From assembly GCA_030390025.1 (NCBI GenBank), contig CM059427.1, positions 208,382,001 through 208,446,000 of the forward strand: DNA of 64,000 nucleotides, given 5' to 3'. Within the stretch, counting starts at the first letter, position 1. Every line of letters starts with the position of its first letter. Positions 5,698 to 59,785 of the stretch are shown piece by piece. Below the pieces are notes generated by a model. It saw only the letters and a program-made list of their open reading frames with translations, was not told the origin of the DNA and did not search any database. The stretch comes from Squalus acanthias. Lineage: Eukaryota. The position numbers and the translations under genes were made by a program.

Positions 5698-6153
5698 CGA
5701 AAAACACAGACTGTTGGTTAATGTGGCTTGACACTCTCAGATGGATTTGGAGGCAGCTGCTCGTTCTCCGTGCTTAGCCGGACTGAGCTGGATAATGACC
5801 AGGATCGACTTTTCCGATTGCAGGAACAGAGTTGCTGTGGTCAATTATAGCTTTTGCTGAGACCACTTAACTGAGCATTAAAGGGAGTAAACCTGTGAAT
5901 TCCTCCAGTAAAATACTCACTTTCACCTGGGCAAACAATCATTCACCATTTTATTATATTTTATGAAGATATCTACCCGGGATCATACTGTAATCTCTGG
6001 GTATTTCACTTCAGAACCGGGTCATAGTTATTTGAAGACATTCCATTCCATCAAAACATAAACACCACACTTGCAGCGGCTGCACTAATCTCTTTGTTTC
6101 AATTAATGTAATTAATATAACAGATCAAGGCATCTGATTATCTCCCTGGAGCC

Positions 6154-6170
6154 TGACATCAGGTATAAAT
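6154..6170 (+). promoter_or_regulatory. Putative core promoter of GPCR copy A (CRE-like TGACATCA + TATAAAT)
   Basis: TATAAAT lies ~50 bp upstream of the ATG at 6221. The same motif block is conserved in copy B at 38877-38893. Confidence 0.65.
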
Positions 6171-6644
6171 GTGACAATCTGTGAGTGGAGTGCAGAGTGC
6201 GCTCAGAGCTTCTGAGAGTAATGCACGGGATACCAAAAGGTATGGTCTTTCCCCTTTACTATCCCGTCATTGCAGCTATCGGCGTTCCAGGTAAAGTATT
6301 GGAGTTAGTTACTACTTATTGGTATCATTGGCTAACTGTATCACTGCTCCTATTTACGGGGAACGCTTGTCCCCTTTACCTGTATCTTTTCTGCCGTTTC
6401 ATGATATATTTTATCTCCTTTAACTGAAGCATTTCCCCCTTTGACAGTATAATTCCTCCCCCTTTACCGCGATAATTTCTTCCCTTTCTCGGCATAATTT
6501 CTTCCTTTTAACAGAATCACTGCCTAGTTTGAGTGCCTGATTCTGCAATATGTGTTTTAATGAGTTTTCAACAGAGCCGCCTCTTCAGCGGTACCAGTCC
6601 ATTTGCTCCGAGTGATGTTTTATTGAAATACATCAGTAGATGTC

Positions 6645-7030
6645 GCTGCACTGTGAGTGGTATTATCACACTATTATAATTGTGTGCATATATTTCCTAT
6701 TGTGTTACTGGTATTTCACTCTGAGGGGTATTATCACACTGTAATAACTGTGTACATATATTTCCTATTGTGTTATTGCTATTTAACTGTGAATGGTATT
6801 ATCGCTCTATTATAACTGTGTGCATATATTTCCTATTGTGTTATTGGTATTTCACTGTGAGTGGTATTATCACATTATTATAACTGTGTACATATAATTC
6901 ATATTGTGTTATTGGTATTTCACTGAGTGGTATTATCACATTATTATAACTGTGTGCATATATTTCCTATTGTGTTATTGGTATTTCAAAGTGAGTGGTA
7001 TAATTAAAGTATTATAATTTGTGGATATTT
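6645..7030. repeat. AT-rich ~66-68 bp intronic minisatellite (related array at ~8910-9200; counterparts in copy B at ~38240-38420 and ~36280-36500)
   Basis: Repeated CTATTGTGTTATTGGTATTTCACTGTGAGTGGTATTATCAC units. Confidence 0.85.
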
Positions 7031-7034
7031 GCAC

Positions 7035-7725
7035 TTGTACTTCTTGCATTTTAGAATACTGTATTCGCTGGTCAGGATGCGGTTGCCTCTATATTGGGGA
7101 GACCAAACGCGGATCGGGTGACCGCTTTGCTGAACACTTCCGTTCAATCTGCAAGCCTGACCCTGGGCTTCCGGACGCTTGTCTGTTTAATTCTCCAGCC
7201 CTCTCCCACTCTGCCCTCTCTGTCATCGGCCTCTTACAAGGTGCTAATGCAGCTCAACGGAAACTCACGCAACAGCACCTCGTCTTTCGAATAGGTATTT
7301 TACAACCTTCCAGACTCAAAATCGAGATCAACAATTTTAGATCAATACCACTGCTCCCATTTTTTGGACAGCAGGTGTTGGTAATGATTCTCCCATTGCC
7401 ATTTACACCTCCTCTAGATCAATCATTTGTTTCTTTACTTGTCCCATTAGGACCTCCTTTTTGTGTTGCACCATCATCCCTTTTGTCATTTAATCACTCC
7501 TGCCTTCTACCCATTCACTGACCTTCCCGTTAGTTCTTTCTTCCACTTGCCCCTTTCTCTGCCTCTGCACTTGCATCTCTAACTTTATCCAGTTCCGGCA
7601 AAAGTCGATCGACCTGAAATGTTAACTCTGTTTCTCGCTCCACAGATGCTGCCTAACCTGTTGAGTATTTCCAGCATTTTCTGTTTTTATTTCAGATTTC
7701 CAGCATCCTCAGTATTTTTCTTTTG
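7035..7725 (+). mobile_element. Penelope-like element 3' fragment (GIY-YIG endonuclease end + terminal repeat)
   Basis: YCIRWSGCGCLYIGETKR...RFAEH motif; same tail as the element ending at ~18650. Confidence 0.85.
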
Positions 7726-7784
7726 TACATCTATTTCCGATTGTGTTATTGTTGCTGTACTGGGAGCCGCATTAGCAGCCACAA

Positions 7785-8910
7785 CAACCTGCATTTATAT
7801 ATCGCCTTTAACGTATTAAAATGCTTCACAGGAGCGTTATCAAACAACATTTCACACCGAGCCACATAAGGAAATATTGGCACAGCAAAAGCTTGGGCAA
7901 ATAGGTAGGTTTTAAGGAGCGTTTTAAAGAAGGAGATAGAGGGAAAGCTCTCCGAATGATTTCGAATTAGGGAGGTTACAATGATAGGGAGGAGCGAAGC
8001 TCTGGAGAGATTTGAACACTAGTATGAGAATTTTAAAATCGTGGCGAGGCTGGACCGGGAGCCAATGGAGGTCAGCGAGCACAGGGGTGATGGATGAACG
8101 GGACTTGGTGCGAGTTAGTCTATGGGCAGCGGAGAATTGGATGAGCTAATTTTTATGGAGGGTGAAAGATGGGAGGCCGGGCAGGAGAGCATTGGAATAG
8201 TCAACTCTAGACGTAACAAAGGCATGGATGAGTGATTCAACAAGTTATGAGCTGAAGCGGGGGTGGAGACGATTATGTTACGGAAGTAGAAGTAGACGTT
8301 CTTGGTGATGGAGCGAATATGTGGTTGGAAGCTCAATTTAGGTCAAATAGGAGGCCAAGGTTACGACCTGTTTGGTTCAGCTTCAGACTATTGCCAGCGA
8401 GAGGGATTGAGTTGGCTAGCGAATAGAGTTTGTGCAGGGACCGAATACAATGGCTTCGGTCTACCCAGTATTCAGTTGGAGGATGTTCCTGCTTATTCAG
8501 TCCTGGATGTACTTCAAGCAGTGTGACAAACCAGAGACAGTGGAGAGGTCTAGAGGGGTCATGGTGAGGTAGAGCTGAGTGTCGTCAGCGTAGATGTGGA
8601 ACCTGCCGCTGTATTTCCGGATGATATCGCCGAGGGGCAGCATGTAGATGAGAAATAGGAGGGGCCAAGGATAGATCCATCAGGGATTCAAGAGCTAACG
8701 GTGCGGAGCGGAAAGATAAGTGATTGCAGCTGATTCTCTGGCTTCCAGGGTCGTTCCACCGAGCTGGATGACGGAGGAGAGGCGTTGGAGGAGTTTGGTG
8801 TGGGTAACCATTTCAAAGGCTGCAGATATTTCCAGAAGGATGAGAGGGATTGTTTACCACGGTCACAGACACATAGGATGTCATTTGTGATTTGGTAAGA
8901 GCTGTTTCAG
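7785..8910 (-). mobile_element. L2-clade LINE 3' fragment, decayed
   Basis: FQPHIRSITKNVYFYFRNI and YADD-type motifs on the minus strand. The orthologous copy in GPCR B is at 36530-37660. Confidence 0.75.
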
Positions 8911-9312
8911 CGCTATCATAATGGTGTGCATATACTTTCTATTGTATTATTTGTATTTAACTGTGGGTGAATTATGACACTGTTATTACTGTGTACATGG
9001 AGTTCTATTGTATTATTGACACTGTTAATGTGGCTGAATTATCACACTATTATCACTGTGTACATGGAGTTCTATTGTATTATTGACACTGTTACTGTGG
9101 GTGAATTATCACACTGTTATCGCTGTGTGCATGGAGTTCCATTGTATTATTGACACTGTTACTTTGGGTGAATTATCACACGGTTGTCACGTTTATCACA
9201 TTTAGTCCTATTGTGTCTGTATTTTCCCCGAACACCCACAACGCAGTTTTCTACTCTCAGTCTCTGACTCACACTGGTTGAGCTCGGCTGCCTCTTCCAC
9301 ATTCTGCTGCTG

Positions 9313-12300
9313 TCTTGAATAGGCGCCAATCACCAGGAGCAGGGGAGCTGAGACATCACTTGTAAATTGGGTGAGGCTCCTAGTGTATAAATGTAAACAT
9401 TTCTGCAGAGCACAGAGCGGTCTGCACAGAGCGGGCTTAAACGGAGTGGAGTTGAACAGAGTGTTTAATTGGGAATTTGGAAAGAGTGGGAATATCTGGT
9501 AAGTATTTTGTAAAAAGAAGCTGTAAAAAGTAAAACTTTGTTTAAGGTTTTGATTTTAACCTATAACTTTAAAAACTGTAGTTAACAGAAGCTGTTGCTA
9601 GTGGCAGTTAACTGTCAGTCAGCTTTAAGTGTTTGTCTTGAATATGCGCTAATCACCAGGAGCAGGGGAGTCGATTTATCACTTGTAAATTGGGTGATTT
9701 AGAAAGAGTGGGAATACAGAGAAGAGGGGGAAGGAGGTGTTGCTTGTTGCCAACACTACGATAGTGCTTTGTGTTTCAGTTAGATATTTAATTTCAGTTC
9801 CCTTAACTTGATCTAGATCAAGTGCGTGGTCAAGAAACTATACTGTTATCTAAGTTACCTAAATACAAATTGAATTACATTTAATTAAATAAAACAAGGT
9901 CATATAGGGCTGCTAGTGCAGGCGGTGTGCAACAACTGCAGCATGTGGGAGTTTGTGGAGAGCATTGTGATCCCGGACAACCACGTATGAAGCAAGTGCC
10001 TGCATCTTGATGCACTTCAGGTCAGAGTTTTTGAGCTGGAGTCTGAGGTGCAGACATTGCGGGGCATCGGGGATAAGGAGAGTTACCTGGACACTTTGAT
10101 CCAGGAGGCAGTCACAACCGTTAGGTTAGGTAGTTGTACATGTCAGGTTAGTGGTCATAGATAGGAGGTTGTGACTGCAAATCAGGCAGGTAAGGGGACC
10201 CCAGGTGCACTGCTGGAGGAGCCTCAGTGGTTGCCCTGGTCCAATAGGTATGAAGTCCTTGCTGCCGGTGTGGATGAGGGAAAAGCCTGAAGGATGGATG
10301 AGCAAGCTGACCGTGGCACTATGGTGCAGTGGGCCATTCAAGTGGGGGGAGTGACAGTGAATGCAGTTGCGGTAGGGGGCAGTATAGTCAGGGCGGTAGG
10401 TACTGTTCTCTGCAGCCACTACCGAGAGTACCGAAGGTTGCGTTGCCTGCCCGGTGCCAGGACTAAAGACATCTCCTCGCGGCTGGAGAAGAACTTGGAG
10501 TAGGAAGGGGAGGATCCAGTTGTCCTGGTCCACGTAGGAACCAACGACATAGGTAGAACTTGGAGTAGTTGGGGGAGGATCCAGTTGTCCTGGTCCACGT
10601 AGGAACCAACGACATATGTAGAACTAGGAATGATGGAATTCTGCTGAGGGAGTTTAAGGAGCTAGAATTCAAATTAAAAAGCAGAAGCTCAAAGCTAATA
10701 ATCTCTGGAGTGTTACCTGAGACAGGCGCAATTTGGCTTCGGGACAAACAGATTAGAGGTTTAAATGAGTGGCTCAAAGAAGGGGGTCAGTTCATGGGGC
10801 ACTGGCACCAGTACTGGGGAAAGAGGGAGCTGTTCCGCTGAGACGGGCTCCAATAAAACCGGGCTGGGTCTAATGTCCTGGTGAAACGAATAACTAGGGC
10901 AGTAAACAGGACTTTAAAATAATGAAAGGTTGGGGGGTGGTAGGATTCAGGAAAGGGTAAATTTAAAAGCAGCGAGAGTAATGTCAAGGATCTAGAGCAG
11001 AGTAGAGTTTTGGGTAAAAATAAGCAGTGTGTGTCAGGAAGGGGATGAGAGAACAACAAAGGTAATAAGGCATCAGTGACTAAGGTGAGATCAGGGAAAA
11101 ATAGAAATGAGTTAAAGCTAAAGGCACTATATCTGAATACACGAAGCATTCGCAACAAATAGATGAATTAATAGCGCAGATAGAAATAAACCAGTTGCAA
11201 AGTGGCCAAGGTTGGCAACGAAATATTCCAGGATACTTAACTTTTAGCAGAGGTAGGCAAAGTGGGAAAGGAGGAAGGGTAGCCCCGATAATAAAGGATG
11301 TGATGAAGACAGTAGAGAGAAAGGATCTTAGCTCCGATAATCAGGAAGTAGAATCGGTTTGCTGGAGCTAAGAAACAGCAAGGGGCAGAAAATATTGGTG
11401 GAGTTGTTTATAAGCCGCCAAAGAGTAGTTGTAATGTAGGGCAGAGTATAAATCAGGAAATTAGAGGCACATATAAGAAGGGGAATACAGTAATCATGGG
11501 GGACTTTAATCTACTTATAAACCAAATTTGCGGTAATAGTGTGGCGGACGAATTCATGGAATGTATGCAAGATAGTTTTACGAATATATGAACATACGAA
11601 TTAGGAGGAGGTATAGGCCAGTCGGTCCCTCGAGCCTGCTCCGCCATTCAATAAGATCATGGGTTATCTGATTACACCGCATTTCCGTCTACCCCCAATA
11701 ACCTTTCACCCCCTTGCTTATCAAGAATCTATCGACCTCTGCATTAAAAATATTCAAAGACTCTGCTTCCACCGCCCACTTTGGGCGGAGCTAAGAAACA
11801 GCAAGCGGCAGAACACATTGGTGGGGGTTGTTTATAGGCCCCCAAAGAGTAGTTGTAATGATGGGCAGAGTATATATCAGGAAATTAGTGGATGCATGCA
11901 ACAAGTGTAATACAGTAATCATGGGGTCTTTAATCTACACAGAAACCAAATCAGTATGTTGGGAAACCAACTAGGGAACAGGCTACATTAGATCTAGTAT
12001 TGTGCAATGAGAAAGGGTCAATTAATAACCTTGCAGTAAAGGGGAATTTAGGGAAGAGTGACCATAATATGATAGAATTTTATATTGAGTTTGAAAGTGA
12101 TTCAGTTGAACCCGAAACTAGGATCTCAAATCTAAACACAGCAAACTACGTAGGTGTGAGAGGCGAGTTTGCGAAGGTAGATTGGGAAACTACAATAAAA
12201 TGTATGATGGTAGAGAAATCCTGGAATATGGAATATACCGTGGAGAAACGTGAAGTTATCCACTTTGGTAGGAAAAATAGAAAAGCAGTGTACTTTTTAA

Positions 12301-13051
12301 ATGGTGAGAGATTGGGAAAAGTTGGTTTTCAGAGGGAACTGGGTGTCCTTGTACACCAATCGCTGAAAGTTAACTTGCAGGTACTGCAAGCAATTCGGAA
12401 AGCAAATGATTTGATGACCATTATTACAAGAGGATTTGAGTATAAGTGTAAAGACGTCATATTCCAATTATATAGCGCCCAGGTGAGATCACATCTGGAG
12501 TATTGTGTACAGTTTTGGTCTCCTTACCGAAGGAAGGATATACTTGCCATAGAGAGAGACAACGAAGGTTCACCAGACTGGTTCCTGGGATGGGGGGTTT
12601 GGCCTATGAGGAGAGATTTAGTAGACTAGGCCTATATTCTCACGAGTTTAGAAGAATGAGAGGAGATCTCACTGAAACACACAAAATTCTTACAAGGCTT
12701 GACAGGGTAGAAGCAGCGAGGATGTTTCCCTGGCTGGGGAGCCTAGAACCAGGGGTCACCGTCAGAGTATAAGGGGTCGGACTATGTGACTGAGATGAGG
12801 AGAAATCTCTTCACTTAGAGGGTGGTGAATCTTTGGAATTCTCTACCCCAGAGGGCTGTGGAGGCTCACTCGTTGAATATATTCAAGACAGAGATCGATA
12901 TATTTTTGAATATTATGGTAATCAATGGATATGGGGACAGTGCAGGAAAAGAGTTGAGGTAGAAGATCAGCCATGATGTTATTGAATGGTGGAGCAGGCT
13001 CGAAGGGCAAAATGGCCTCCTGCTGCTCCTCTGTTCTTATGTTGTTATTTT
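9313..13051 (+). mobile_element. CR1 LINE, 5' UTR to tail, with internal deletions (decayed esterase ORF1, APE, RT C-terminus)
   Basis: VVLVHVGTNDI (SGNH esterase), VGVVYRPP, KSDHNMIEF, HLEYCVQFWSP and a CR1 tail. The flanks join seamlessly in the copy B intron (empty site near 36020). Confidence 0.9.
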
Positions 13052-15029
13052 CTGACAGTTCTCACAGTGACCGCTGCTGAGCCCGGGAGTTCCCGTCTTC
13101 AATCATTGAGTGAGGCTGCATAACTGGTGTCATGTCTCGTAACTGAGTCACAAAGTTTTAGGCTCAATATCCACTCTAAAACTTTTTATTTATTCGTTCA
13201 TGGGATGCGGGCGTCGCTGGCAAGGCCAGCATTTATTTCCCATCCCTAGTTGTCCTTGATCAGGTGGTGGTGAGCCGCCTTCTTGAAACGCTGCATCGTG
13301 TTGTGAAGGTATTCCCAAAGCGCTGTTATGGAGGGAGTTCCAGGATTTTGACCCAGCGACGATGAAGTAACGGCGATAAATTTCCAAGTCAGGATGGTGT
13401 GTGACTTGGAGGGGAACTTGGGTGGTGGTTCTCCCAAGCGCCTGCTGCCCTTGTCCTTCTAGATGATAGTGGTCGCGGATATCGGAGAAGCTGCCAAAGA
13501 AGCCTCGGTACTCCGGTTGTGGAGGGAGTGAATGTTTAATGTGGTGGATGGGGTACTAATCAAGCAGGCTGCTTTTGCTTGCATAGTGTCGAGCTTCTTG
13601 ACTGTAGTTGGAGCTGCACTCAACCAGGGAAGTGGCGAGTGTTCCATTGCACTCCTGACTTGTGCCTTGTAGATGGGGGAAAGGCTTTGGGGAATCAGGA
13701 GGTGAGACACTCGCCGCAGAATCCCCAGCCTCTGACCTGCTCTTGTTGCCACAGTATTTCTGTGGCCGGACCAGTTAAGTTTCTGGTCAATGGTGACCCC
13801 CAGGATATTGATGGTTGGGATTCGGCGATGTTAATGCCGGTGAATGTCAAGATGAGGTGGTTAGGCGTTCGCTTGTTGGAGATAATCATTGCCTGGCCCT
13901 TGTGTGGCACAAATGTTACGTGCCACTTATCAGCCCAAGCCTGAATGTCGTCCAGGTCTTGTTGCTTGCGTGCATGGACTGCTTCATTATCTGAGGAGTT
14001 GTGAATGTTACTGAACACTGTGCAGTCATCAGCAAACATCCCCATTTCTGACCTTATGTTGCAGGGAAGTTCATTGATGAAGCAGCTGAAGATGGTTGGG
14101 CCTCGGACACTGCCCTGAGGGCCTCCTGCAGCGATATGCTGGGGTAGTGATGATAGATCTCCAACTACCACAACCATCTTCCTTTGTGCTAGGTGTGACT
14201 CCAGCCAGTGGAGAGTTTTCCCACTGATTCCCATTGACTTAAGTTTTACCAGGGTTCTTTGGTGCCACACTCTGTCAAATGCTGCCTTGATGTCAAGGGC
14301 AGTCGCTCTCACCTCACCTCTGGAATTCAGCTCCTTTGTCCATGTTTGGACCAAGGCTGTAATGAGGGCGGGAGCCGAGTGGTCTTTGCGGAACCCAAAC
14401 TGGGCATCAAGGAGCAGGTTATTGGTGAGTAAGTGCCGTTTGATAGCACTCACGACGACAAGTCAAGACTCGGTTTCACAGTCACATCATTTTCCTCAGC
14501 AACTGTCTCCGGTTCCGACTTATCCCACGTGGATTCCAACTAAACTTCCACCCTTCGAGTTTCGGATCCACCCAGGATTACAAATATCTCCAAGATATTC
14601 ATAGTTCCTCGATCTACTGCTCTCGCCGCTTCTTGAGATCCACGCTCAACACCATGCGGCGCCACATGAACACTCTCGACCTCTCTCTTCAGCAGCACCG
14701 ACGCACTCTATCTCAAAGCTGTCCGGGTCCACAGTTCCATTTCATCCTTAGACTCATCCGACGCTTCAAAAAAATACTTTTCTTCTTCCTTTCCGATGTC
14801 AAGGATCGTAAGCTTCAACAACTCTTGGACAGTAACGCCCCCCTTCACTTTCCTCTGACCCCCCATCTCCCAATCTCACCCCCTGCCGCGTTTTCACTAT
14901 CCCCTCTGACCGTCCCCTCTCTGACCCCGAACGATCAGTCCTCAGCAAAGGCCTGAGCTTCATCCCCTTACGCCCCCACCTCAATGAATTTCGAGCTCCG
15001 CACGATGCTGAGCTCTTTTTCCGCCGCCG

Positions 15030-16175
15030 CAACAAGTAGCCAGTGGTGTTCCGCAGGGGTCGGTGCTGGGTCCCCAACTCTTTACAATCTATAATAACGA
15101 TTTGGAGGAGGGGAATGAGTGTAACATATCAAAGTTTGCAGATGATACAAAGATGGGAGGGAAAGTAGAGAGAGAGGAGGAAATAAAAAACATACAAGGG
15201 GAAATAGACAGGCTGGGTGAGTGGGCAGAGATTTGGCAGATGCAATACAATATTGGAAAATGTGAGGTTATGCACTGTGGCAGGAAAAATCAGAGAGCAA
15301 GTTATTATCTTAATGGCGAGAAACTGGAAAGTACTGCAGTACAAAGGGATCTGGGTGTCTTGGCGCAAGAAAATCAAAAAGTTAGTATGCAGGTGCAGCA
15401 GGTGATCAAGAAAGCCAATGGAATGTTGGCTTTTATTGCTAGGGGGATAGAATATAAAAACAGGGAGGTATTGCTGCAGTTGTATAGGGTATTGGTGAGA
15501 CCGCACCTGGAGTACTGCATACAGTTTTGGTGTCCATACTTAAGAAAAGACATACTTGCTCTCGAGGCAGTACAAAGAAGGTTCACTCGGTTAATTCCGG
15601 GGATGAAGGGGTGGACATACGAGGAGAGGTTGAGTAGATTGGGACTCTACTCATTGGAGTTCAGAAGAATGAGAGGCGATCTTATTGAAACATATAAGAT
15701 TGTGAAGGGGCTTGATCAGGTGGACGCGGTGAGGATGTTCCCAATGATGGGTGAAACTAGGACTAGGGGACATAATCTTAGAATAAGGGGCTCCTCTTTC
15801 AAAACTGAGATGAGGAGAAACTTTTTCACTCAGACGGTAGTGGGTCTGTGGAATTTGCTACCCCAGGAAGCTGTGGAAGCTACTTCATTAAATACATTTA
15901 AAACAGAAATAGACCGTTTCCTAGAAGTAAAGGGAATCAGGGGTTACGGGGAGCGGGCTGGAAATTGGACATGAGTTTGAGTTCGGATCGGTCAAGGCCC
16001 TGTGGGCGGCGGAGCGGGCCCAGGGGCCGAGTGGCCTGGTCCTGCTCCTAATTCCTGTGTTGTTTAGAGTTGAGTTTGGATCAGATCAGCCATGATCTCA
16101 TTGAATGGCGGAGCAGGCTCGAGGGGCCGATTGGTCTACTCCTGCTCCTATTTCTTATGTTCTTATGTTATTATG
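15030..16175 (+). mobile_element. 5'-truncated young CR1 LINE (uninterrupted 303-aa RT C-terminus)
   Basis: ORF 15063-15974 (GPQLFTIY...KFADD...RPHLEYCIQFW), a duplicated 3' UTR and a (TTCTTATG)n-type tail. Confidence 0.92.
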
Positions 16176-18520
16176 TTCGTCTCCATGCCCACTTCATTGG
16201 CCAGGAGTCTTCCCCCCGCATGGCTGACCCTTTATCCCGCTTTCAGAATTCTCGTTCCACCTGGACCCCTCCCTCTGGCCTCTTACCCTCTCGAGATCTT
16301 TTCATTGCTAACGGCCGCCGTGACATCGGCCATCTCAATTTCTCTGATACCCTCATTCACTCCTACCTACCTCCATCTGAACTTGCAGCACTCCATTCTC
16401 TCCGATCCAACCCCGACCTTGTCATTAAACCTGCTGACAAGGGTGGTGCTGTTGTTGTTTGGCGAACCGAACTCTACCTAGCGGAAGTTGAACGCCAACT
16501 CTCCGACATCGCCTCCTACCTCCACCTGGACCATGACCCCACTACCAAACATCAAGCCACCGTTTCCAAGACTGTCACTGACCTCATCTCCTCTGGAGAT
16601 CTTCCCCCACGGCCGCCTACCACATAGTTCCCCAACCACGCACAGCCCGCTGCTACCTCCTTCCCAAGTTCCACAAACAGGACTGCACTGGTAGACCCAT
16701 CGTTTCAGCCTGCTCTTGCCCCACGGAACTTATCTCTTCCTATCTCGATTCTATTTTTTCTCCCCTTGTCCACTCTCTTCCCACCTACATCCACGATTAC
16801 TCTGACGCCCTCCGCCACTTTAACAGTTTCCAGTTTCCAGACCCCAACCACCTCCTTTTCACTATTGACGTACAATCCCTCTACACCTCCATCCCCCACC
16901 AGGATGGCCTGAGGGCGCTCCGCTTCTTCTTCGAACAGATGCCCAACCAATCCCCAGCCACCGCCAAACTCCTCCACCTGGCTGAACTTGTTCTCACAGT
17001 TGAACAACTTCTCCTTTGACTCCACTCATTTCCTCCAAATCAAAGGTGTTGCTATGGGTACCCGCATGGGTCCTAGCTATGCCTGCCTTTTCGTGGGATA
17101 TGTGGAACACTCTTTGTTCCAGGCCTACTCGGGTCCCCTCCCTCACCACTTTTTCCGGTACATTGATGACTGTATCGGTGCCGTTTCCTGCTCTCTCCCT
17201 GAAATAGACAATTTCATTCACTTTGCCTCCAATTTCCACCCGCCCCTCACCTTCACATGGTCCATCTCCGACTCTTCCCTTCCCTTCCTCGACTTCTCCG
17301 TCTCCATCTCTGGGGATAGGTTATTGACAAACATTCACTACAAGCCCACTGACTCCCACAGCTACCTGGACTACACTTCCTCCCACCCCGCCTCCTGTAA
17401 GGACTCTATTCCCTTCTCCCAGTTTCTCCATCTCCGCCGCATCTGCTCCGACGATGCCACCTTCCATACCAGTACTTCCGACATGTCTTCCTTTTTCCTC
17501 AACTGAGGATTCCCCTCTACCGTGGTCGACAATGCCCTCGACCGTGTTCGTTCTATCTCCCGCACTTCTGCCCTCACCCCGGCCCCTCCCTCCCAGAACC
17601 ACGATAGATTTCCCCTTGTCCGCACCTTTCACCCCACCAGCCTCCACATTCAACGGATCATCCTCTGCCATTTCCGCCACCTCCAACATGATCCCACCAC
17701 CAAACGTATCTTCCCCTCACCTCCCCTTTCAGCATTCCGTAGGGACAGCTCCCTCCGAGACACACTAGTCCACTCCTCTATCACCCCCAACACCCCTTCC
17801 CCTTCGCCCGGCACCTTCCCGTGCAAGCGCAGGAGATGCAACACCTGCCCTTATACATCCCCCCTTCCCACTCTCCAGGGCCCCAAACACCCCTTCCAGG
17901 TGAAACAGCGATTTACTTGTACTTCTTACAATCTAGTATACTGTATTCGCTGCTCACAATGTGGTCTCCTCTACATTGGGGAGACCAACCGCAGATTGGG
18001 TTACCGCTTTGCGGAACACCTCCGTTCAGTCTGTAAGGGTGACCCCGAGCTTCCGGTCGCTTGTCATTTTAATTCACCTCTCCACGTCCACTCAGACCTC
18101 ACCATCCTTGGTCTCGTGCATTGTTCCACGGAAGCTTAGCGTAAGCTCGAGGAACAGCACCTCATCTTTCGTTTAGGCACTTTACAGCCTTCCGAACTCA
18201 ATATCGATTTCAACAATTTCAGATCATATACTCGGCCCCTACCACATATATATATACATTTTATCCACCATTTTGGTTCGTGCCTTTTTCCTTTTTTTTT
18301 TTCTCTCTCCCATTACGGCAGCTGTCTCTCATTCTGCCAAGATTTCACTCTTCACACTTCTAGCCACCTTTTGTTTCTTAACCTGTCCCATTACCAACTC
18401 GTCTTGCCTTGAGCATCTCTTAATGTCTCTACTTACCATAGACCACCCCTTTTGTTCTTTTATTCCTCCCCCCAGCCACCACTTTGCTTTTTTAACTGTT
18501 TCATTTCCTACTTTTTTCTC

Positions 18521-18556
18521 AGTTCTGACGAAGGGTTTCGACCTGAAACGTCAACT
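18521..18556 (+). ncRNA. Minimal hammerhead ribozyme in a Penelope terminal repeat
   Basis: AGTT-CTGACGA-A-GGGT(TTCG)ACCT-GAAAC-GTC-AACT: stem I, catalytic core, UUCG-capped stem II, palindromic ACGT and a GUC cleavage triplet. Confidence 0.75.
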
Positions 18557-21254
18557 CTGTTTCTCTCTCCACGGATGTTGCCTGGCCTGCTGAGTTTTTC
18601 CAGCGTTTTCTGTTGTTGTTTCAATGTTCCAGCATCCGCAGTATTTTGCTATCGTACCTTCCATCACTTTGCTGATGATTGAGAGTAGACTGCTGGGGCA
18701 GTAATTGGCCGTATTGGACTTGTCCTGCTTTTTGTGGACAGGACATTCCTCGGCAGTTTTCCACATTGTCGAATAGATGTCAGTGTTGTAGCTGTACTGG
18801 AACAGCTTGGCTAGATGCGCAGCTAGTTCTGGAGCACAAGTCTTCAGCACCACAGCCGGGATGTTGTCGGGACCCACAGCCTTTGATGTATCCACTGCGC
18901 TCAGCCGTTTCTTGATATCACGTGGAGTGAATTGGCTGAAGAATGGCTTCTGTGTTGGTGCAAACCTCAGGAGGAGGCCGATATAGATCATCTACTCTAC
19001 GCTTCTAGCTGAAGATGGTTGCAAACGCTTCAGCTTTGTCTTTTGCACTCACGTGCTGGGCTCTACCATCATTGAGAATGGGGATATTCATGGATCCGCC
19101 TCCTCCCGTTAGTTGTTTAATAGTCCACCACCATTCAAGATTGGATGTGGCAGGACTGCGGAGCTTTGATCTGATCCGTTGATTGTGGGATCATTCCCTC
19201 TGTCTATGGCATGCTGATTCCGCTTTTAATCAGGAATGTCGTCCTGTGTTTCAGCTTCCCCAGGCTGGCATCTCATTTTTAGGTACGCCTGGTGCTGCTC
19301 CCGGCATGCTCTTCTACACTCCTTATTGAACCAGTGTTGTTCACCTGGCTTCAATTTAATGGTAGATTGAGGGATATGCCGCGCCATCGGTTACAGATTG
19401 TGATGGAATACAATTCTCCTGCTGCCCCACAGCACCTCATGGATGCTCAGTTTTGAGCTGCTAGACCTGTTCTGTATCTATCCCATTTCGCACGGTGGTA
19501 GTGCCACACAACACGATGGAGGATGACCTCAGTAAGAAGATGGGACTTCGTCTTCACAATGACTGTGCGGTGGTCACTGCTACCAATGCTGTCTTGGACA
19601 GAAACATCTGCGACTGGTAAATTGTTTAGGACGATGTCAAGTAGGTTTTTCCCGCGTTTTGTTTGTCCCACCACCTGTCGCAGGCCCAGACTGGCAGTTA
19701 TATCCTTCAGGTAGTGGTGCTACCGAGACAATCTTGGTGATGGACTTTGAAGTCCCCCACCCAGAGTACATGCTGTGTCCTTGCTACTCTCAGTGCTTCT
19801 TCCAAGTGGTGTTCAACATGAAGGAGTACTGATTCATCAGCTGTGGGAGGACGGTAGGTGCTAATCAGCAGGAGGTTTCCTTGTCCATGCCTGAGCTGAG
19901 GCCATGAAACTCAATAGGGTCCGATGTCAATGTTGTGGACTCCCAGGGCCACTCCTTCCCGACTATATACCACTGTACCGCCACCACTGCAGAGTCTGTC
20001 ATTCAGGACATTCCCAGGGATGGCAATGGAGGAGTTGGGGACATTGGCTGAAAGTTATGATTCTGTGAGTATGACGATGACAGCCTGTTGTTTGACTAAT
20101 CTGTGGGACAGCTCTCCCAATTTTGGCACAAGTCCCAAGATGCTGGTGAGGAGGACTTTGCAGGGTGGACTGGGCTGCGCTGGGTGTCCGCAGCCGGTGC
20201 TGCGGATGCTGCGTGGAGCGTCCGGGTATATTCTTATTATTTTTCGCATTTTTTTTTTACATCTGAGTTGTTCGGCTATTTTAGAGGGGAGTTAAGAGTT
20301 AACCACACTGCTGTGGGTCTGGCGTCACAGGTAGGCCAGCCCAGGTAATAATGGCAGTTTCCCTTCCCTAAAGGATATTAGTGAGCTAGATGGGTTTTTA
20401 CAACAATCCGTTATTTGGTCACTTTTACTGATGCTAGCTTTATTTTCCAGATTTATTTAATTAATTGAATTTTAATTCCACAGCTGCCATGGTGGGTTTA
20501 TGAACTCACGTCTCTGGATCATTAGTCCAATAAAATTACCACTACGCTACCGTTCCCAATCATTTTTACCGGCAGCGCTGTTCAGTACTGAGCAAGTGCT
20601 GCATTGTAGGTGGTGCCTTTCACCGACTGAGACCTCATCCTCTGCCAGTTCTGATGGTTCCGATGAACACCGAGGATCCCAGGTGATTATCAGAAGAAGA
20701 GCTCGGAGTTTTCACTGTGTTCTCGCAACATCCCCTCCGCAAAGTCAATAGCGCCAATTGTTCATCCGCCCCTCGCTGTTTGCGAATATTTTGGCGCAAG
20801 TTGTCTTCCAAAAGTGAATAGTTTTACAGTAATTCATCGGATGAGGGCGTTTTGGGTCCTCCGCAGGAGATAATCCGTTTTAAATGCACTTTTCCTATTT
20901 TCTTGTTACTTTCCACTTTCATTTTTACCCTCTTAAATATCGTCTCAACTGCGTTACTGTAATGTTATATTTACTGATTTGCTATTTTTTCTATTTGATG
21001 TTCGCGCGTTGGTTTCGAGGTGTTTAAGATGCTCTCTTGTTCTCCATTAGGATTCATTATATTATTTCACATTCCGATGTCATTGGTCTGTCTTATTTTT
21101 AACCTGGAGGACTATTTTAAACAAAGTAACAGATGCCCATAGCGTAAGCGATCTGTTTTCAACTCAGGATCACATGTCAAAGCTATAAATTTCACACTGA
21201 ATCCTGTCAAAAGGATGATCTTGCGGGGATTCGGAACAGTAATTTTCCTGTTCT

Positions 21255-22140: not shown

Positions 22141-22524
22141 TACAGCGAACTTGGCAGTGATTGTGATCCTGTCCCGAGGACGGTGCGGTCTCTCCAGATG
22201 TATCAACCTATACCTGTTGTCCATGGCGGTGACGGATCTCCTGGTCATTATCATCGCTGTGATATTTAACCGGATTGTTGATATTTATTTTCCAGTTAGT
22301 TTCCTGTGCATCACTCCGGTCTGTTGTCTCCGTTTTGCCCTAATCTATGCAGCCAGAGATAGTTCTGTCTGGGTAACGGTCGCTTTCACCTTTGATCGAT
22401 TTGTCGCCATTTGTTGCCTGAAGCTGAAAACAAAATATTGCACCGAAAAAACAGCGGTGGTTATAGGAACGGTCAGTGCCGTGAGCTGTTTAAAAAATAA
22501 CATATTTTATTTTATATATGAACC

Positions 22525-26906: not shown

Positions 26907-26942
26907 GTGAGGACAGTGGAATAGCGCTCAGAATTTCTCTGT

Positions 26943-27764: not shown

Positions 27765-27819
27765 CTGTCGAGGGTCACACGTGTAGATTGGGCACATGGG
27801 TAACACATTGGAGAGAAAC

Positions 27820-32542: not shown

Positions 32543-35500
32543 TCATTTAAATAATTTACCAATTAGACTCAGTGGATATTTCACCCCATTATTTAACTCC
32601 TCTCTGAATTTACTCTGGGTACCTGCATAAATAAACGGGTTGATGCAGGAACTCAGAAGCTGAAGCATAAATCCGCTTTCCTCCAGAATAAAATTCGATT
32701 CCTTGAAATTGGAACCGGAGAAGTAAGTAACGTTCGCAATCCGGACATAGAGGAAAGTTAAAAGATACAACAAATATAAAAGTATGAAACTGCCCGAGAT
32801 ACAGAAGAGTAAAACCATGGAATTTCTCCGCTTCTCCATCTCTGGGTCACTTTGATTCTCTCCACTGCTGTGGGCCCGGAGTCTCCTGCGGGCTCTACTG
32901 GCCGCTAGAATGTGTCTGACGGTCAGAGCATTGAGCAGCAAAATCAGAATGAATGGGAGACACGGGTTTAAAATGCAATTAATCCAGTCAAACGCGGCCC
33001 ATGCAGGTGAGGTATAAAATATTAATTTTACACTGCAGAACCAGGGTATGTTGTTAATTGTGTACAAAGGTTCATATATAAAATAAAATAATGCATTTTT
33101 GATGCAGCTCACGGCACAGACCGTTCCTATAACCACCGACATTGTTTTCTCGGTGCAATATCTTGTTTTCAGCTTCTGGCAACAAATGGCCGCAAATCGA
33201 TCAAAGGTGAAAGCGACCGTTACCCAGACAGAACTGTCTATGACTCCAAAAATTATCGCAAGTTTCAGACTACATACCGGAGTGAGGGACAGGAAACTGA
33301 ACGGGAAATAAATACCAGCAATGCGGTTTAATATCACAGCAGTGATACTGACCAGGAGATCCGTCACCGCCATGGACAAAAGGTACCGAGTGATACATCT
33401 GGAGAGACCGCACCTTCCTCGGGGCAGGATCACAATCACTGCCAAGTTAGCTGTAACAGAGAGAGAGAGAGAAACAGAGCGTGAGAGAGGGAGAGAGAGT
33501 GAATGTGTGTGAGAGAGGGAGAGTGAATGAGTGTGGGTGAGAGGGAGCGAGAGTGAATGTGTGTGAGAGAGAGGGAGAGAGTGTAAATGTGAGTGAGAGA
33601 GAGGGAGAGAGAGTGAATGTGTGAGAGAGAGGGAGTGTGAATGAGTGTGAGTGAGAGGGAGCGAGAGTGAATGTGAGTGAGAGAGAGGGAGAGAGAGTGA
33701 ATGTGTGAAGAGAGAGGGAGAGAAGGGTATGTGTGTGAGAGAAAAGTGAGAAGTCGCACAACACCAGGTTATAGTCCAACAGCTTTATTTGAAATCACAA
33801 GCTTTCGGAGCGGCTGCTCCTTCGTCAGGTGACAAAGGAGCAGCCGCTCCGAAAGCTTGTGATTTCAAATAAAGCTGTTGGACTATAACCTGGTGTTGTG
33901 CGACTTCTCACTTTTGTCCACCCCAGTCCAACACCGGCATCTCCGCGTCGTGTGTGAGATAGAGGGAGAGAGAGTGAATGTGTGCGAGAGAGAGGGCGAG
34001 AGAGTGAATGTGTGTGAGAGAGAGGGAGAGAGAGTGAATGTGTGTGAGAGAGGGGGAGAGAGAATGAATGTGCGTGAGAGAGAGGGCGAGAGAGTGAATG
34101 TGTTTGAGAGAGAGGGAGAGAGAGTGAATGTGTTGGAGAGAGAGGGAGATAGAGTGAACATGTGAGAAAGAGGGGGTGAAAAAGTGAATTTGTGTGAGAG
34201 AGAGGGAGAGAGAGTGAATGTGTGTGAGAGAAAGGGAGAGAGAGTGAATGTGTGTGAGAGAGAGGAAGAGAGAGTGAATGTGTGTGAGAGAGAGGGAGAG
34301 AGAGTGAATGTGTGTGAGGGAGAGGGAGAGAGAGTGAATGTCTGTGACAGGGAGGGAGAGAGAGTGAATGTGTGTGAGAGAGAGGGAGAGAGAATGTGTC
34401 TGTGAGAGAAGGAGAGAGAGTGACTGTGTGTGAGAGAGGGAGAGAGAGTGAATGTGTGTGAGGAAGAGGGAGAGAGAGTGAATGTGTGTGACAGAGAGGG
34501 AGAGAGAGTGAATGTTTGTGAGAGAGTGGAAGAGAGAGTGAATGTGTGTGAGAGAGAGGGAGAGAGAGTGGATGTGTGTGAGAGAGAGGGAGAGAGATTG
34601 AATGTGTGTGAGAGAGAGGGAGAGAGGGTGAATGTGTGTGCGAGAGAGGGAGAGAGTGTGAATGTGTGTGAGAGAGAAGGAGATAGAGTGAATGAGTGTG
34701 AGAGAGAGGGAGAGAGAGCGAATGTGTGTGTGAGAGAGGGAGAGAGTGTGAATGTGTGTGAGAGAGAGGGAGAGAGAATTAATGTGTGTGAGAGAGTGGG
34801 AGAGAGAATGAATGTGTGTGAGAGAGAGGGAGAGAGATTGAATGTGTGTGAGAGAGAGGGAGAGAGAATGAATGTGTGTGAGAGAGAGGGAGAGAGATTG
34901 AATGTGTGTGAGAGAGAGTAGAGTGGGTGAACGTGTGTGCGAGAGAGGGAGAGAGAATGAATGTGTGTGAGAGAGTGGGAGAGAGAGTGAATGTGTGTGT
35001 GAGAGAGGGAGAGAGAGTGACTGTGTGAGAGAGAGGGAGAGAGAGAGTGAATGAGTGATAGAGGTAGAGAGAGTGAATGTGTGTGAGAGAGAGGGGGGGA
35101 GACTGAATGTGTGTGAGAGAGAGGGAGAGAGAGTGAAAGTGTGTGAGAGCGAGAACAGAAATATTGCTGGTCCGAATCCCGGCAAGATCATCCGTTTGAC
35201 AGATTTAAGTGTGAAATGTACAGCTTTGACAAGTGACCCTAAGTTGAAAACAGATCCCTTACGCTTTGGGCACCTGTTTCGGTGCTGAAAATAATTCTCC
35301 AATTTAAAAATAAGACAGACCAGTGAAATCGGAATGTAAAATAATACAATGAAACAACGGAGAGCAAGAAAGCACCACGAAATCAACGCGTTGACATCAA
35401 ATACACAAAAAATAACATACCAGTAACGCAGTAGAGAAGATATTTAAGAGAGTAAATAATAAATACGATAATGAAAGGGGAGAGTAACAAGAAAATAGGA

Positions 35501-38500
35501 AAACGTGCATTTAAAACGGATTAGGTCCTGCGGAGGACCCAAAACGCCCTCATCCGACGAATTACTGTAAAATGATTCACTTTTGGAGAATCAGCTGTCA
35601 ACTTGCGCCAAAATATTCGCAAACAGCGAGGGGAGGATTGACAATTGGTGTTTCTGTCTTTGCGGAGGGTATGTTGCGAGGAAACTCCGAGCTCTTCTTC
35701 TGATAATCACCTGGAATCTTCGGTGGCCATCGGAACCACCGGAACTGGCTGAGGATGAGGTCTGAGTCGTTGAAAGGCACCTCCTACAATGCAGTACTTG
35801 CTCAGTAATGCACAGCGCTACCTGGAAAATGATCGGTCTAGTCTTAGAGTGGCTATTGAACTTAAAACTTTATGACTCAGAAACGAAACATGCCACCAGT
35901 TATGCAGCCTCAGTCAATGAGGAGAAAAGAGTGAAGACGGGGACAGTCCGGGACATAGTCAGGTGTCAGGAGCAGAAGGAAATCCCGGGCTCAGCAGCGG
36001 TCACTGTAGAACTGTCAGCAGCAGCGAAAGTGGAAGAGGGATCCGGGCTGGTCAGTGAGAGTCAGAGTCTGAGAGCAGAAACACGGCGCTGTGTGAGTTT
36101 GGGGCAAATACAGATCCATTCATAAAACTGCCACGTGTTACCGTGTTATATTTCTGACAACAACTCAGCGCCTAATAATGTTTTTTTCAAAAATACTTCA
36201 TTATATTCATTCGGGAATTATTTATCGGTGAATAATCTCAATGAACGAATTATTTGTGGAAATTAGTCAGTCACTGCCAATGTCAGTAACACAATAGAAT
36301 TCCATGTACACAGTGATAACAGTGTGATAATTCAGCCACAGTGACAGTGTCAGTAACACAATAGAACTCCATGTACACAGTGATAACTGTCTGATAACTC
36401 ACCCAGAGTGACAGTGTCAGTAACACAATAGAACTCCATGTACACAGTGATAACAGTGTGATAATTCACGCAAAGTAAATTACTCATAATAAATAGGAAA
36501 TATATGCACACCATTATAATACAATAACAGTTCTTATCAAAATCACAAATGACATCCTGCGTGTCTGTGATCGTGGTAAACTATCCCTCTCATCTTTCTG
36601 GACCTGTCTGCAGCCTTTGACACGGTTGACCACAACCTCCTCCTCCAACGCCTCTCCTCCGTCGTCCAGCTCGCTGTGACTGTCCTCATAGCCAGAGAAT
36701 CACCTGCAATGGCTTCTCTTCCCGCTTCGCACCGTTAGCTCTTGAATCCCTGATGGATCTATCTTTGCCCCCCGCCCCACCCTATTTCTCATCTACATGC
36801 TGACCCTCGGCGACATCATCCGAAAACACAGCGTCAGGTTCCACGTATACGCTGACGACACTCAGCTCTACCTCACCATGACCTCTCTCGACCCCTCCAC
36901 TGTCTCCGACATGTCACACTGCTTCTCCGACATCCAGCCATGGATGAGCAAAAATTTCCTCCAAATAAATACTGTGTAGTCCGAAGCCATTGTCTTCGGT
37001 CCCACCACAAACTCTATTCCCTAGCCACCGCCTCCAGCCCTCTGCCTGGCAAATCTCTGAGGCTGAACCAGACAGTTCGCAAAGTTGACCTCCTATTTGA
37101 CACTGAATGGAGCTTCCAAACACATATTGGTTAAATCACCAAGACCGCCTAATTCCTTCGCCGAAATGTCGCCCGTCTCCGCCCTTGCCTCAGCTCATCA
37201 GCTGTTGAAACCCTCATCCATGCCTTTGTTACCTCTACACGTTACTATTCCAATGATCTCCTGGCCGGCCTCCCACCTTCCACCCTCCATAAACTTCAGC
37301 TCATCCAAAACAAAGCCTGCCGTAAACCCAGTCCCGTTCGCCCATCACCCCTCTGCTCGCTGACATACAATAGATCCCGGATAAGCAACGCCTCGATGTT
37401 AAAATTGTCATCCTTGATTTCAAATCCCTCCATAGCTTCGCTTCTCCCGATCATTGTAACCTCCCCAACCCTACATCATTCCGAGAGCTTGGACTTCATC
37501 TACACCTTTAAGTTGGTCCTTAAAACCTCCCTATTTAACAAAGATATTGCTGTGGTAATATCTCCTTATGCGGCTCGGTGTGAAATTTTGTATGATAACG
37601 CTCCTGTGAAGATTTTACAACTTAAAAGGGCTGTACAAATGTAAGTTGTTGTTGTTGAAAATACGACTCACAGTACAGCACCAGTAACACCATAGGAAAT
37701 AGAAGTTTACATTTATTGTAAATATATATATGTATAATAGTGTGATAATACCACTCAGTGAAATACCAATAACACAATAGGAAATATACGTACAAAAGCA
37801 AAATAGAGTGAAAGCTGGAAATCTAAAATAAAATCAGAAAATTCTGGAAATGCTCAGCAGGTCAGGCAGCATCAGTGGAGAGAGCCACACAGTTAATGCT
37901 TCAGGTCGATGACCTTTCATCAGAACTGGATAACGTTAGAGATGTAATTGATTTTAAGCAAGTACGGGCTGGGAAAGGGGGATTGGAGGTAATAGCAAAA
38001 GGGAAGTTATGCGAATGGGTGGAAGGCAGGAGTGATTAAATGACAAAAGGGATGATGGTGCAAGGCAAAGGGGGATGGTAATGGAATAAGTAAAGAATAA
38101 AAAGATGGGTGTCGAGGAGTTGTAAATGGCAACAGCAGCATAATTATCAACAGCTGCTGCCTGAGTAAATGGAAACAGTGGTTATCAACTGACATTGTTG
38201 AACTCAATGTTGAGTCCGAAAGGCTGTAAAGTGCCTAACCGAATAGGAAATATATGTACAGAGTTATAATAGTGTGATAACACTGACAGTGAAATACCAA
38301 TAATACATTAGCAAATACATGCACACAGTTATAATAGTGTGATAATACCCCTCACAGTGAAATACCAATAACACAATAGGAAATATATGTACACAGTTAT
38401 AATAGTGTGATAATACCACTCACAATGTAGCGCCATACACTGTTGAGTTTCAATAAATCATCACTTAATGAACTTGTACCGCTGAAGAGGCGGCTGTGTA

Positions 38501-38826
38501 GAAAACACATATCAACAAATATTGGAGAACCAGTCACTCAGATTAGCTATTGATTCCGTTAAATGGGAGAAATGATTGCGGTAAAGGGGGAGGAAGAATA
38601 CTGTCAAAGGGGAGAAGTTATTCCGTTAAAGGAGATAAAATATACCATGAAACGCCGAAATTGATACAGTTGAAGGAGAGAAGCGACCGGTAAATAGGAG
38701 CAGTGATACAGTTAACCAATGATTTCCATAACTAGTAACTAACTCCAATACTTTACCTGGAACCCCGATAGCTGCAATGACAGGATAGTAAAGGGCAAAC
38801 ACCAGACCTTTTGCTGACCCGTGCAT
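32543..38826 (-). CDS. GPR139-like class A GPCR, copy B, intact (exon 1 38826-38757, exon 2 33450-32543; 325 aa)
   Basis: 70 + 908 bp with a canonical phase-1 GT/AG intron. Motifs YYPVIAAIGVPANL, LLSMAVTDLLV, SSVWVTVAFTFDRF and SSCINPFIY match the GPR139/142 family and its intron position. Candidate AATAAA at 31977-31982 and 31926-31931. Confidence 0.9.
33455..35150. repeat. GA/GT-rich ~30-bp minisatellite upstream of the exon 2 acceptor of GPCR B
   Basis: (GAGAGAGGGAGAGAGAGTGAATGTGTGTGA)n. Confidence 0.95.
33742..33949. mobile_element. Short palindromic Penelope terminal-repeat insertion with a hammerhead motif (33795-33832, minus)
   Basis: Perfect 81-bp inverted arms at 33742-33822 and 33835-33915. 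The minus strand reads TCAC-CTGACGA-A-GGAGC(AGCC)GCTCC-GAAAGCTT-GTGA. Confidence 0.82.
36530..37660 (+). mobile_element. L2-clade LINE 3' fragment (orthologue of 7785-8910)
   Basis: FHVYADDTQLY motif; homologous to the copy A intron element. Confidence 0.8.
37795..38245 (-). mobile_element. Penelope 3' fragment within the AT-rich minisatellite of the GPCR B intron
   Basis: Reverse complement of the Penelope tail with a degenerate hammerhead core. Confidence 0.75.
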
Positions 38827-38876
38827 TTCTCTCAGAAGCTCTGAGCGCGCTCTGCACTACACTCACAGATTGTCAC

Positions 38877-38893
38877 ATTTATACCTGATGTCA
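38877..38893 (-). promoter_or_regulatory. Putative core promoter of GPCR copy B (TGACATCA + TATAAAT)
   Basis: Identical to the copy A motif block. Confidence 0.65.
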
Positions 38894-39336
38894 GGCTCCA
38901 GGGAGATAATCAGATGGCTTGATCTTGTATATTAATTACACTAAATGAAACAAACAGATTAGTGCAGCCGCTGCCAGGATGGTGCTTATGTTTTGATGGA
39001 ATGGAATGTCTTTAAATAACTCTGACCCGGCTCTGAAGTGAAATACCCAGAGATTACAGTATGATCCCGGGTAGAGTTCTTCAAAAATATAATAAAACGC
39101 TGAATAAGTGATTGCCATGGTGAGAGTGAGCCTTCTACATGAGGAATTAATGGGTTTAAGCACCTTAGTACTGAGTTAAGTGATCTCAGCACAATCTATA
39201 ATTAACGAGAGAAACTCTGGTTCAGCAGCCGGAAAACGCGCCCAGGTACTCGCTCCTGCCCGGGTAAGCACCGTACACAGGCACTTGGCTCCAAATCCCT
39301 CTGAGAGTGTACGCCCACTTTAAAACAGGTGTCTCT

Positions 39337-40285
39337 ACATTCAGTGTGGACAGGTCCAGTTCAGCACAGTTACATTCAATGTGGACTGGTCCAGTTCAGC
39401 ACAGTTAGATTCATTGTGGACAGGTCCAGTTCAGCACGGTTACATTCAGCGTGGACTGGTCCATTTCAGCACGGTTATATTCAGTGAGGACAGGCCCAGG
39501 TCATAGAAACATAGAAACATAGAAACATAGAAGATAGGAGCAGGAATAGGCCATTCGGCCGCTCGAGCCTGCTCCGCCATTCGATCAGATCATGGCTGAT
39601 CATCCAAACTCAGTACCCTGTACCTGCCTTCTCCCCATATCACTTGATACCTTTAGCTTTAAGAAATATATCTAACTCATTCTTGAATATATTTAATGAA
39701 TTGGCCTCAACTACCTTCTGTGGTAAAGAATTCCACAGGTTCACCACTCTCTGAGTGAAGAAATTCTTCCTCATTTCTGTCCTAAATTGCTTACCCCTTA
39801 TCCTTAGATTATGACCCCTGGTTCTGGACTCTCCGACCATCGGGAACATTCTTCCTGCATCTAGTTTGTCCAGACATGTCAGATTGTTATATGTTTCGAT
39901 GAGATCCCCTCTCATTCTTCAATACTCCAGCGAGTACAAGCCCAATCGACCCAATCTCTCCTCATATGTCATTTCTGCCAGGTCAGCACGGTTACATTCA
40001 GTGTGGCCATGTCCAGTTCTGCAGGGATGCATTCAGTGTGGACACGTCCAGTTCAGCACAGTTACATTCAGTGTGGACAGGTCCAGTTCAGCACAGTTAC
40101 ATTCAGTGTGGACAGGTCCAGTTCAGCACAGTTATATTCCGTGTTGACATGTCCAGTTCAGCACTGTTACATTCAGTGTGGACAGGTCCAGGTCAGCACG
40201 GTAACATTCAGTGTGGATAGGTCCAGGTCAGCACGGTTACAATCAATGTGGACAGGTCCAGTTAAGCGCGGTTGCATTTAGTCTG
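39337..40285. repeat. Inverted copy of the 35-bp satellite, interrupted by a CR1 3' fragment (39503-39975, minus)
   Basis: CATTCAGTGTGGACAGGTCCAGTTCAGCACAGTTA units on both sides of a CR1 piece with a (CATAGAAA)n tail. Confidence 0.92.
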
Positions 40286-42830: not shown

Positions 42831-42834
42831 CTAT

Positions 42835-43010: not shown

Positions 43011-43049
43011 CACAGCTGCACAGCTCCGTGCTCGTCCTGTACATAAACT
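43011..43049 (+). promoter_or_regulatory. 23-bp-spacer recombination signal sequence
   Basis: CACAGCT + exactly 23 nt + ACATAAACT, directly after the YYCALRP codons. Confidence 0.85.
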
Positions 43050-59782: not shown

Positions 59783-59785
59783 TTT

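Follow-up and report, generated by a model that had tools for sequence, protein, structure and literature searches.

GPR139 and GPR142 are class A orphan G protein-coupled receptors (GPCRs) activated by L-Trp and L-Phe (PMC5430874; PMC7318219). Activation of GPR139 by Trp/Phe requires residues F109, H187, W241, and N271 (PMC5430874), and true GPR139 orthologues of human and zebrafish still share 70% identity (PMC7318219). We analyzed 64,000 nucleotides of Squalus acanthias (GenBank assembly GCA_030390025.1, contig CM059427.1, positions 208,382,001 to 208,446,000 of the forward strand), hereafter the window, which carries two copies of a two-exon class A GPCR gene of the kind named GPR139-like in databases. 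One copy (B) is intact and the other (A) is broken by a long interspersed nuclear element (LINE). Judging from sequence comparisons, the family to which both copies belong probably serves as a sensor repertoire covering many ligands of outside or foreign origin. It resembles the odorant receptors (ORs), TAARs, V1R/V2R, T2R, FPRs, and MRGPRs in the properties that we take to characterize such repertoires: clustering, birth-and-death evolution, small genes, a variable pocket, and a fixed signalling side. It differs from them in having arisen separately, apparently from a peptide-receptor-like orphan.

A homologue search with exon 2 of copy B returned 2,028 clusters at E<=1e-20 among 4,579 candidates. 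The best 120 matches all bore shark names, and 81 of them came from one shark species of Heterodontus, on five contigs; deeper members of the family came from rays and a chimaera. A sequence-only reading of this locus had posited many GPR139-like paralogues in sharks, which these numbers bear out. It had also linked them to the amino-acid sensing of GPR139/142, and this link was not supported. The family profile scored 53.5 bits against human GPR139 and 54.3 bits against the TRH receptor, and one family member matched human GPR139 at E=3e-6. Because the profile scores GPR139 level with the TRH receptor, whereas true orthologues keep the high identity given above, the name 'probable GPR139' is misleading, and the family is, on its sequence, distinct from the brain receptor GPR139. 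Three of the four key pocket residues are not family features: an aromatic residue (Y/F) is kept at 3.33, whereas the site of H187 holds H41/R22/D10/L10, that of W241 Y70/W21, and that of N271 Y56/F35/N7. Human GPR139 also lacks, in the alignment, both C3.25 and the cysteine of the second extracellular loop (ECL2), which are both present in the shark family, and it is one conserved gene as opposed to a very large family. What GPR139 shares with the family is a two-exon gene, as in copy B (PMC7318219), and, together with GPR142, membership of the same broad clade by profile search and similar motifs in transmembrane helices TM1 to TM3. We find it very improbable that these genes are true GPR139/142 paralogues sensing L-Trp and L-Phe. 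The database names, the two exons, the aromatic residue at 3.33, and a match of E=2e-18 that makes GPR139 the best solved structure for the sister receptor described below would all fit such an origin, but the profile scores and the failure to keep H187, W241, and N271 as family features argue against it. The family intron presumably lies at the same codon as in GPR139.

Other receptors proved closer to the family. In the full profile search a salamander clade ranked as the best non-shark match (205 bits), followed by a coelacanth receptor (190 bits), a teleost receptor (171 bits), and amphioxus (127 bits). We built a tree of 83 rows (82 of 167 proteins plus exon 2 of copy B; true GPR139 and GPR142 were not included), in which the salamander genes grouped with the shark family (SH-like approximate likelihood ratio test, SH-aLRT, 100) and the coelacanth-teleost receptor was their sister (89). 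The position of the salamander genes implies that the lineage is older than the split between sharks and bony fish. These genes (P0221, P0276, P0279) form one 90% cluster with 5 members from three salamander species, and the expansion seen in sharks is not seen there. The sister receptor (P0228, P0296) is a 'GPR139-like' receptor found in sharks, bony fish, amphibians, and reptiles that resembles the family in its scores (171-190 bits), its short N-terminus, and its C3.25. Unlike the family, it is present mostly as one copy per species among the best 120 of 145 matches, and its polar pocket is near-invariant. Its shark orthologue (P0296) exists apart from the expanded family. The sister receptor possibly corresponds to one of the GPR210A/B clades that Rinne et al. 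2019 put forward tentatively (PMC6504862). Among the same 120 matches, conservation of the sister receptor (P0228, P0296-P0413) extends from sharks to turtles and squamates, with no bird or mammal, and two of its records are named TMEM183A, a name that hints at a neighbouring gene. No description of the expanded family was found in the literature searched, most subscription journals lying outside its coverage, and its genes are already catalogued by automatic annotation. [quoted passage not shown]

The features of a class A GPCR are evident in exon 2 of copy B (Pfam 7tm_1, E=5e-19). We aligned 81 sequences, namely the 80 near full-length sequences of the best 120 matches plus exon 2 of copy B, a set dominated by one species. 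N1.50, D2.50, the D-R pair at 3.49-3.50, P5.50, NPxxY, and the pair of C3.25 and the ECL2 cysteine are 88-100% conserved in this set. Its signalling side is fixed, with D3.49, R3.50, N7.49, C3.25, and the ECL2 cysteine at 100% and Y7.53 at 98%. An AlphaFold model of a relative (P0002, 82% identical) showed a normal bundle of seven transmembrane helices (predicted local distance difference test, pLDDT, 76.6). A fold search with this model did not single out GPR139; the top structural matches were generic peptide receptors.

Variation was concentrated in the predicted ligand pocket. Entropy at 26 predicted pocket positions was 1.24, as against 0.64 at 154 other transmembrane positions (p=4e-5, by a statistic that ignores relatedness), and it also exceeded the value for 61 extracellular non-pocket positions (p=0.013; p=6e-4 by residue class). 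The sister receptor, represented by 93 of ~120 proteins, those with a length of 300-375 aa, was not more variable at the same positions (0.74 vs 1.01), despite its lower mean identity (58% vs 73% for the family). Nine of its polar pocket residues (E2.61, R3.28, D3.29, Y3.33, N3.37, Q5.42, R6.51, Q6.55, and D7.36) were 97-100% fixed. The acidic residues D3.37, D5.39, E7.35, and E7.36 are largely kept in the family. The diversification that had been expected of the family is therefore found in its pocket and is absent or reversed in the single-copy sister. As far as a comparison of entropies indicates, which does not test for positive selection, the pattern is that of a one-ligand receptor turned into a repertoire.

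Several points weigh against the repertoire reading. Besides the neglect of relatedness, the 26 pocket positions were assigned through generic numbering set from anchor residues rather than through docking; the sister alignment may slip in TM5. P6.50 is mostly replaced in the family (by L in 73%), and with its loss activation may be atypical. The sawfish genes described below rest on their names. In mammals, the MHC and TRA/TRD likewise have odorant receptors beside them, so a location among immune genes says little about cell type. Finally, a catshark top-50 list for 'brain & olfactory epithelium' contains no GPCR (PMC11979771), though single members of a repertoire would rarely rank in such a list.

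We propose that the family descends from an old orphan receptor, present in a single copy and with a fixed polar pocket, and that segmental duplication within immune-gene regions rich in repeats (here likely the IgM/TCR-alpha-delta complex) multiplied it. As the pair shows, a cassette consisting of a 35-bp array, a conserved TATA promoter, a 70-bp exon 1, an intron, and exon 2 was duplicated long ago, at a synonymous divergence (dS) of 0.22. Both copies retained an open frame, with a ratio of nonsynonymous to synonymous divergence (dN/dS) of ~0.5, while the top of TM3 changed, and copy A subsequently lost its 3' half at the LINE. The ligands may carry a basic group (amines or cationic peptides), as the kept D3.37, D5.39, E7.35, and E7.36 suggest, and their specificity would be tuned at 3.28-3.36, 5.42-5.43, and 6.51-6.55. 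We tentatively predict expression in sensory epithelia, slightly ahead of leukocytes. The sequence-only reading had pictured a sensor repertoire under birth-and-death evolution. Duplication, diversification, and the death of one gene beside a live copy all stand, whereas ligand sensing and cell type belong to the predicted part.

A more far-reaching version appears rather doubtful to us. It would make these genes a further large sensor family of cartilaginous fish with an origin apart from OR, TAAR, V1R, V2R, and T2R, in which an orphan pocket was freed. [quoted passage not shown] Sharks are described as poor in odorant receptors, the catshark having 2 OR, 6-7 OR-like, and about 32 V2R genes (PMC11979771), and the shark chemoreceptor text of that article, in its available part, does not count the present family. 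If the repertoire reading is true, a family under the wrong name 'GPR139' would alter the chemoreceptor count of sharks or add a class of innate-immune receptors, and it would represent an independent case of a one-ligand orphan becoming a repertoire. The conserved sister receptor offers a direct handle on the ancestral ligand.

The surroundings of copy B point to immune-gene regions. Upstream of copy B, a broken V exon of TCR-alpha/delta type lies 3.5 kb from the array region of that gene, and IgM and TCR remains both occur within 8.5 kb of copy B (Table 1). The V exon matches V-set at E=0.003, below the cut-off, and its matches in the PDB include many TCR-alpha chains but also single-chain variable fragments (scFvs); its recombination signal was read by eye and was missed by a strict signal scan. 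The IgM exons are a truncated remnant of a shark heavy-chain cluster, whose full form has V-D-D-J with CH1-CH4: VH, J, CH3, and CH4 of the immunoglobulin heavy chain (IgH) were not found within the window. In the elasmobranch antigen-receptor complex, V exons of TCR-alpha/delta type lie interspersed between IgH clusters (Flajnik et al. 2025, PMC12227049). The window resembles this complex in having IgM constant exons with such a V exon close by, but its immune pieces are broken and its placement in the complex is our inference. GPCRs are not mentioned in the main text or two supplement files of that article. A table of the sawfish MHC on chr34 lists 13 genes of the same name, matched by name only, among MHC-Ib, B2M, and C4 (Verissimo et al., PMC10751288). 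The family likely sits inside immune-gene regions.

One narrower form of the repertoire reading would make the family an immune-cell sensor repertoire, comparable to the formyl-peptide or Mas-related receptors and kept in the antigen-receptor complex and the MHC through co-regulation. The IgM CH1-CH2 and V remains close to copy B, the sawfish genes, and a pocket floor with acidic residues favor this form, yet family members occur on many chromosomes, and a search of supplementary material from two single-cell papers on shark immune cells (4 files and 1 small one, in which genes may carry IDs) gave no match to the family names. We regard it as unlikely. The available text of PMC13113109 and PMC12208981 contained nothing bearing on the family. 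Regarding expression of the locus itself, contigs from four sequencing runs that we guessed to be RNA covered exon 2 in the form of related copies and hardly covered exon 1 and the unique parts of the introns, a weak hint. No contig among those listed from these runs spanned a splice joint; the best share of words was 0.04, and non-coverage proves nothing.

The two receptor genes form a mirror. A masked self-BLAST of the window revealed collinear inverted blocks between the cassettes of copies A and B, with E-values from 0.0 to 8e-15, far above chance. Including the tandem arrays, 12 mirror blocks span 5,895 of the 6,961 bases of the B cassette. The 35-bp array, the promoter, exon 1, 68- and 67-bp arrays, two common retroelement pieces, a 30-bp CT-rich array, and exon 2 recur in mirror order, with the 68-, 67-, and 30-bp arrays in matching order in both copies. 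This agrees with the mirrored arrangement, the common elements older than the A/B split, and the pairing of a live with a dead copy that had been described earlier. The symmetry also reaches further than had been recognized, to a 35-bp array upstream of both genes that ends 523 bp (A) or 510 bp (B) before the ATG. In both copies exon 1 measures 70 bp and has a GT donor, and exon 2 is preceded by an AG acceptor. The 'L2' and 'Penelope' labels given earlier to the shared intronic pieces fared less well. The pieces are retroelement-derived and common to both introns, but they have no Pfam match, and both labels derive from sequence motifs, with a weak GIY-YIG match (E=0.0025) in a related copy as further backing.

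The frame of copy B is unbroken over two exons and 325 aa. Homology of copy A to copy B ends at 22524 and the LINE starts at 22525; the frame of copy A reads through into the LINE and stops at 22585. A tblastn search of the window with 283 homologues did not find the 3' half of copy A. It is thus absent from the window, and was lost or moved, not merely interrupted. A consensus splice donor is found at ~22680 in this LINE, downstream of the new stop codon. The intron of copy A is 15,855 bp long and that of copy B 5,306 bp. Two A-only inserts (~9314-13069 and 13184-20555), which contain reverse transcriptase (RT), endonuclease, and GIY-YIG pieces, face near-empty sites in copy B, which supports their later insertion into copy A, as had been proposed; a clear target-site duplication was not seen at these inserts. 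Copy B has later inserts of its own. The young LINE 3' end in its 35-bp array (39504-39977) is 95% identical to 53918-54356. An origin of the 35-bp array from a LINE motif was tried and rejected (p 0.2-0.9).

The intron blocks of copies A and B are 79-88% identical. Over 149 codons, dN/dS was 0.52 (bootstrap 0.30-0.92), from which it follows that copy A was constrained through most of its history. The 259 bp before the ATG are 92.7% identical, well above the prediction from the intron rate (p=6e-6), which selection on the promoter or gene conversion could each produce. A short stretch at the top of TM3, residues 84-94, accounts for eight of the 31 amino-acid differences (scan p=0.012). A live/dead inverted pair alone is ordinary gene turnover, and the whole expansion might be passive: the cassette would hitch-hike in unstable, repeat-rich regions, most copies would be redundant, and their variation would reflect relaxed constraint. 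The dead neighbours (copy A, IgM, TCR V, retroelements), a dN/dS below 1, and satellites favouring unequal exchange are in line with such a process. We nevertheless consider it quite unlikely for the family, as the variation clusters in the pocket and leaves the signalling side unchanged, the promoter shows strong conservation, the frame of copy B stayed open across a dS of 0.22, and deep subfamilies are common to sharks, rays, and a chimaera.

How the pair arose is less clear. We inferred a tree of 91 rows and 150 columns from copies A and B and 89 homologues that span 140 or more of the first 150 residues. Both copies fell in one supported clade of 25 rows (99/88) with proteins of Heptranchias, Pristiophorus, Heterodontus, and Rhincodon, but they were not joined as sisters, and copy A shares 80.0% identity with a Heterodontus protein, against 78.7% with copy B. 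A single local inversion is accordingly possible but unproven. Of the inverted tail-to-tail duplication suggested by the sequence-only reading, the inverted pair stands, whereas its origin by one event does not follow from this tree. An alternative is that two older cassettes were brought tail to tail within a cluster. Adjacency, the same intron furniture, the same 35-bp array, and the common clade favor one local inverted duplication, while the failure to join as sisters, the lack of mirror symmetry found by self-BLAST between the 3' ends (26.9-32.5 kb), and the sawfish cluster of same-named genes, where strands are mixed and 5.1 kb separate the members of a tail-to-tail pair (PMC10751288), speak against it. 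On balance we hold a single local duplication to be possible but somewhat doubtful. No third receptor copy was found within the window.

Table 1. Features of the receptor pair and of the neighbouring antigen-receptor remains (positions in the window)
Feature	Position	Strand	Remarks
35-bp minisatellite upstream of A, 64 units	3459..5698	.	ends 523 bp before ATG
A proximal promoter and 5' leader, TATAAA at 6164	5961..6220	+	92.7% identical to B over 259 bp
A coding exon 1, 70 bp, GT donor, phase 1	6221..6290	+	
A intron, 15,855 bp: 68/67-bp arrays and retroelement pieces (7299-8906) common with B, A-only inserts, 30-bp CT-rich array	6291..22145	+	
A exon 2, 5' part only (TM1 end to TM4), open frame with one 3-nt deletion	22146..22524	+	7tm_1 E=3e-7
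Decayed LINE, near full-length, cutting A	22525..~26906	+	GDSL-type ORF1 (open reading frame 1) and RT matches; 87% identical to copy at 50265-54353
B exon 2, intact	32543..33450	-	7tm_1 E=5e-19 (Pfam)
B intron, 5,306 bp, with B-only 180-bp palindrome 33739-33918	33451..38756	-	
B coding exon 1, 70 bp	38757..38826	-	
B proximal promoter and 5' leader	38827..39085	-	
35-bp minisatellite upstream of B	39336..40282 (parts 39336-39503, 39978-40282)	.	split by young LINE 3' end
Inverted blocks A/B, gene 5' side	5711-6647/39328-38429; 7299-7751/38230-37767; 7727-8906/37706-36526		masked self-BLAST
Inverted blocks A/B, intron to exon 2	9217-9312/36113-36019; 13103-13183/35920-35840; 20556-21239/35836-35167; 22145-22524/33451-33069		masked self-BLAST
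Broken TCR-alpha/delta-type V exon: frameshift and internal loss, Cys/Trp motifs, 23-bp-spacer recombination signal	42810..43049	+	
IgM CH2 exon, open frame	46533..46829	-	71-78% identical to shark IgM heavy chains P0123, P0122; C1-set E=5e-17
IgM CH1 exon, two stop codons	47525..47821	-	75-77% identity

Several repeats accompany these features. The palindrome inserted in the CT array of copy B is near-perfect (89-nt arms, 98%, 2-nt gap) and is presumably Penelope-like; its read depth was very high in four sequencing runs, which indicates a high-copy element. The non-mirrored gap between the 3' ends of the two genes holds a 63-bp tandem array (27822-28406) and a 23-bp array (29888-30033). Between IgM CH1 and CH2, a 38-bp minisatellite (46961-47442) matches a LINE coding motif, with 0 of 100 shuffles reaching its score in three LINE copies; by this match it appears to be a satellite born from a LINE.

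Rfam gave 0 matches in the window. Further downstream lies a decayed long terminal repeat (LTR) retroelement (49498-61066) with direct repeats at 49498-49959/59786-60246 (90%), split by a LINE, and at 54366-55148/60246-61066 (85%), and with weak protease and Ig-domain matches inside. Part of it (55559-56078) resembles 732-1285 in inverted orientation (72%). At the other end of the window, an open frame of 468 codons (3-1406, + strand) has no Pfam match above the cut-off and is partly similar to this LTR element at 55.6-56.1 kb.

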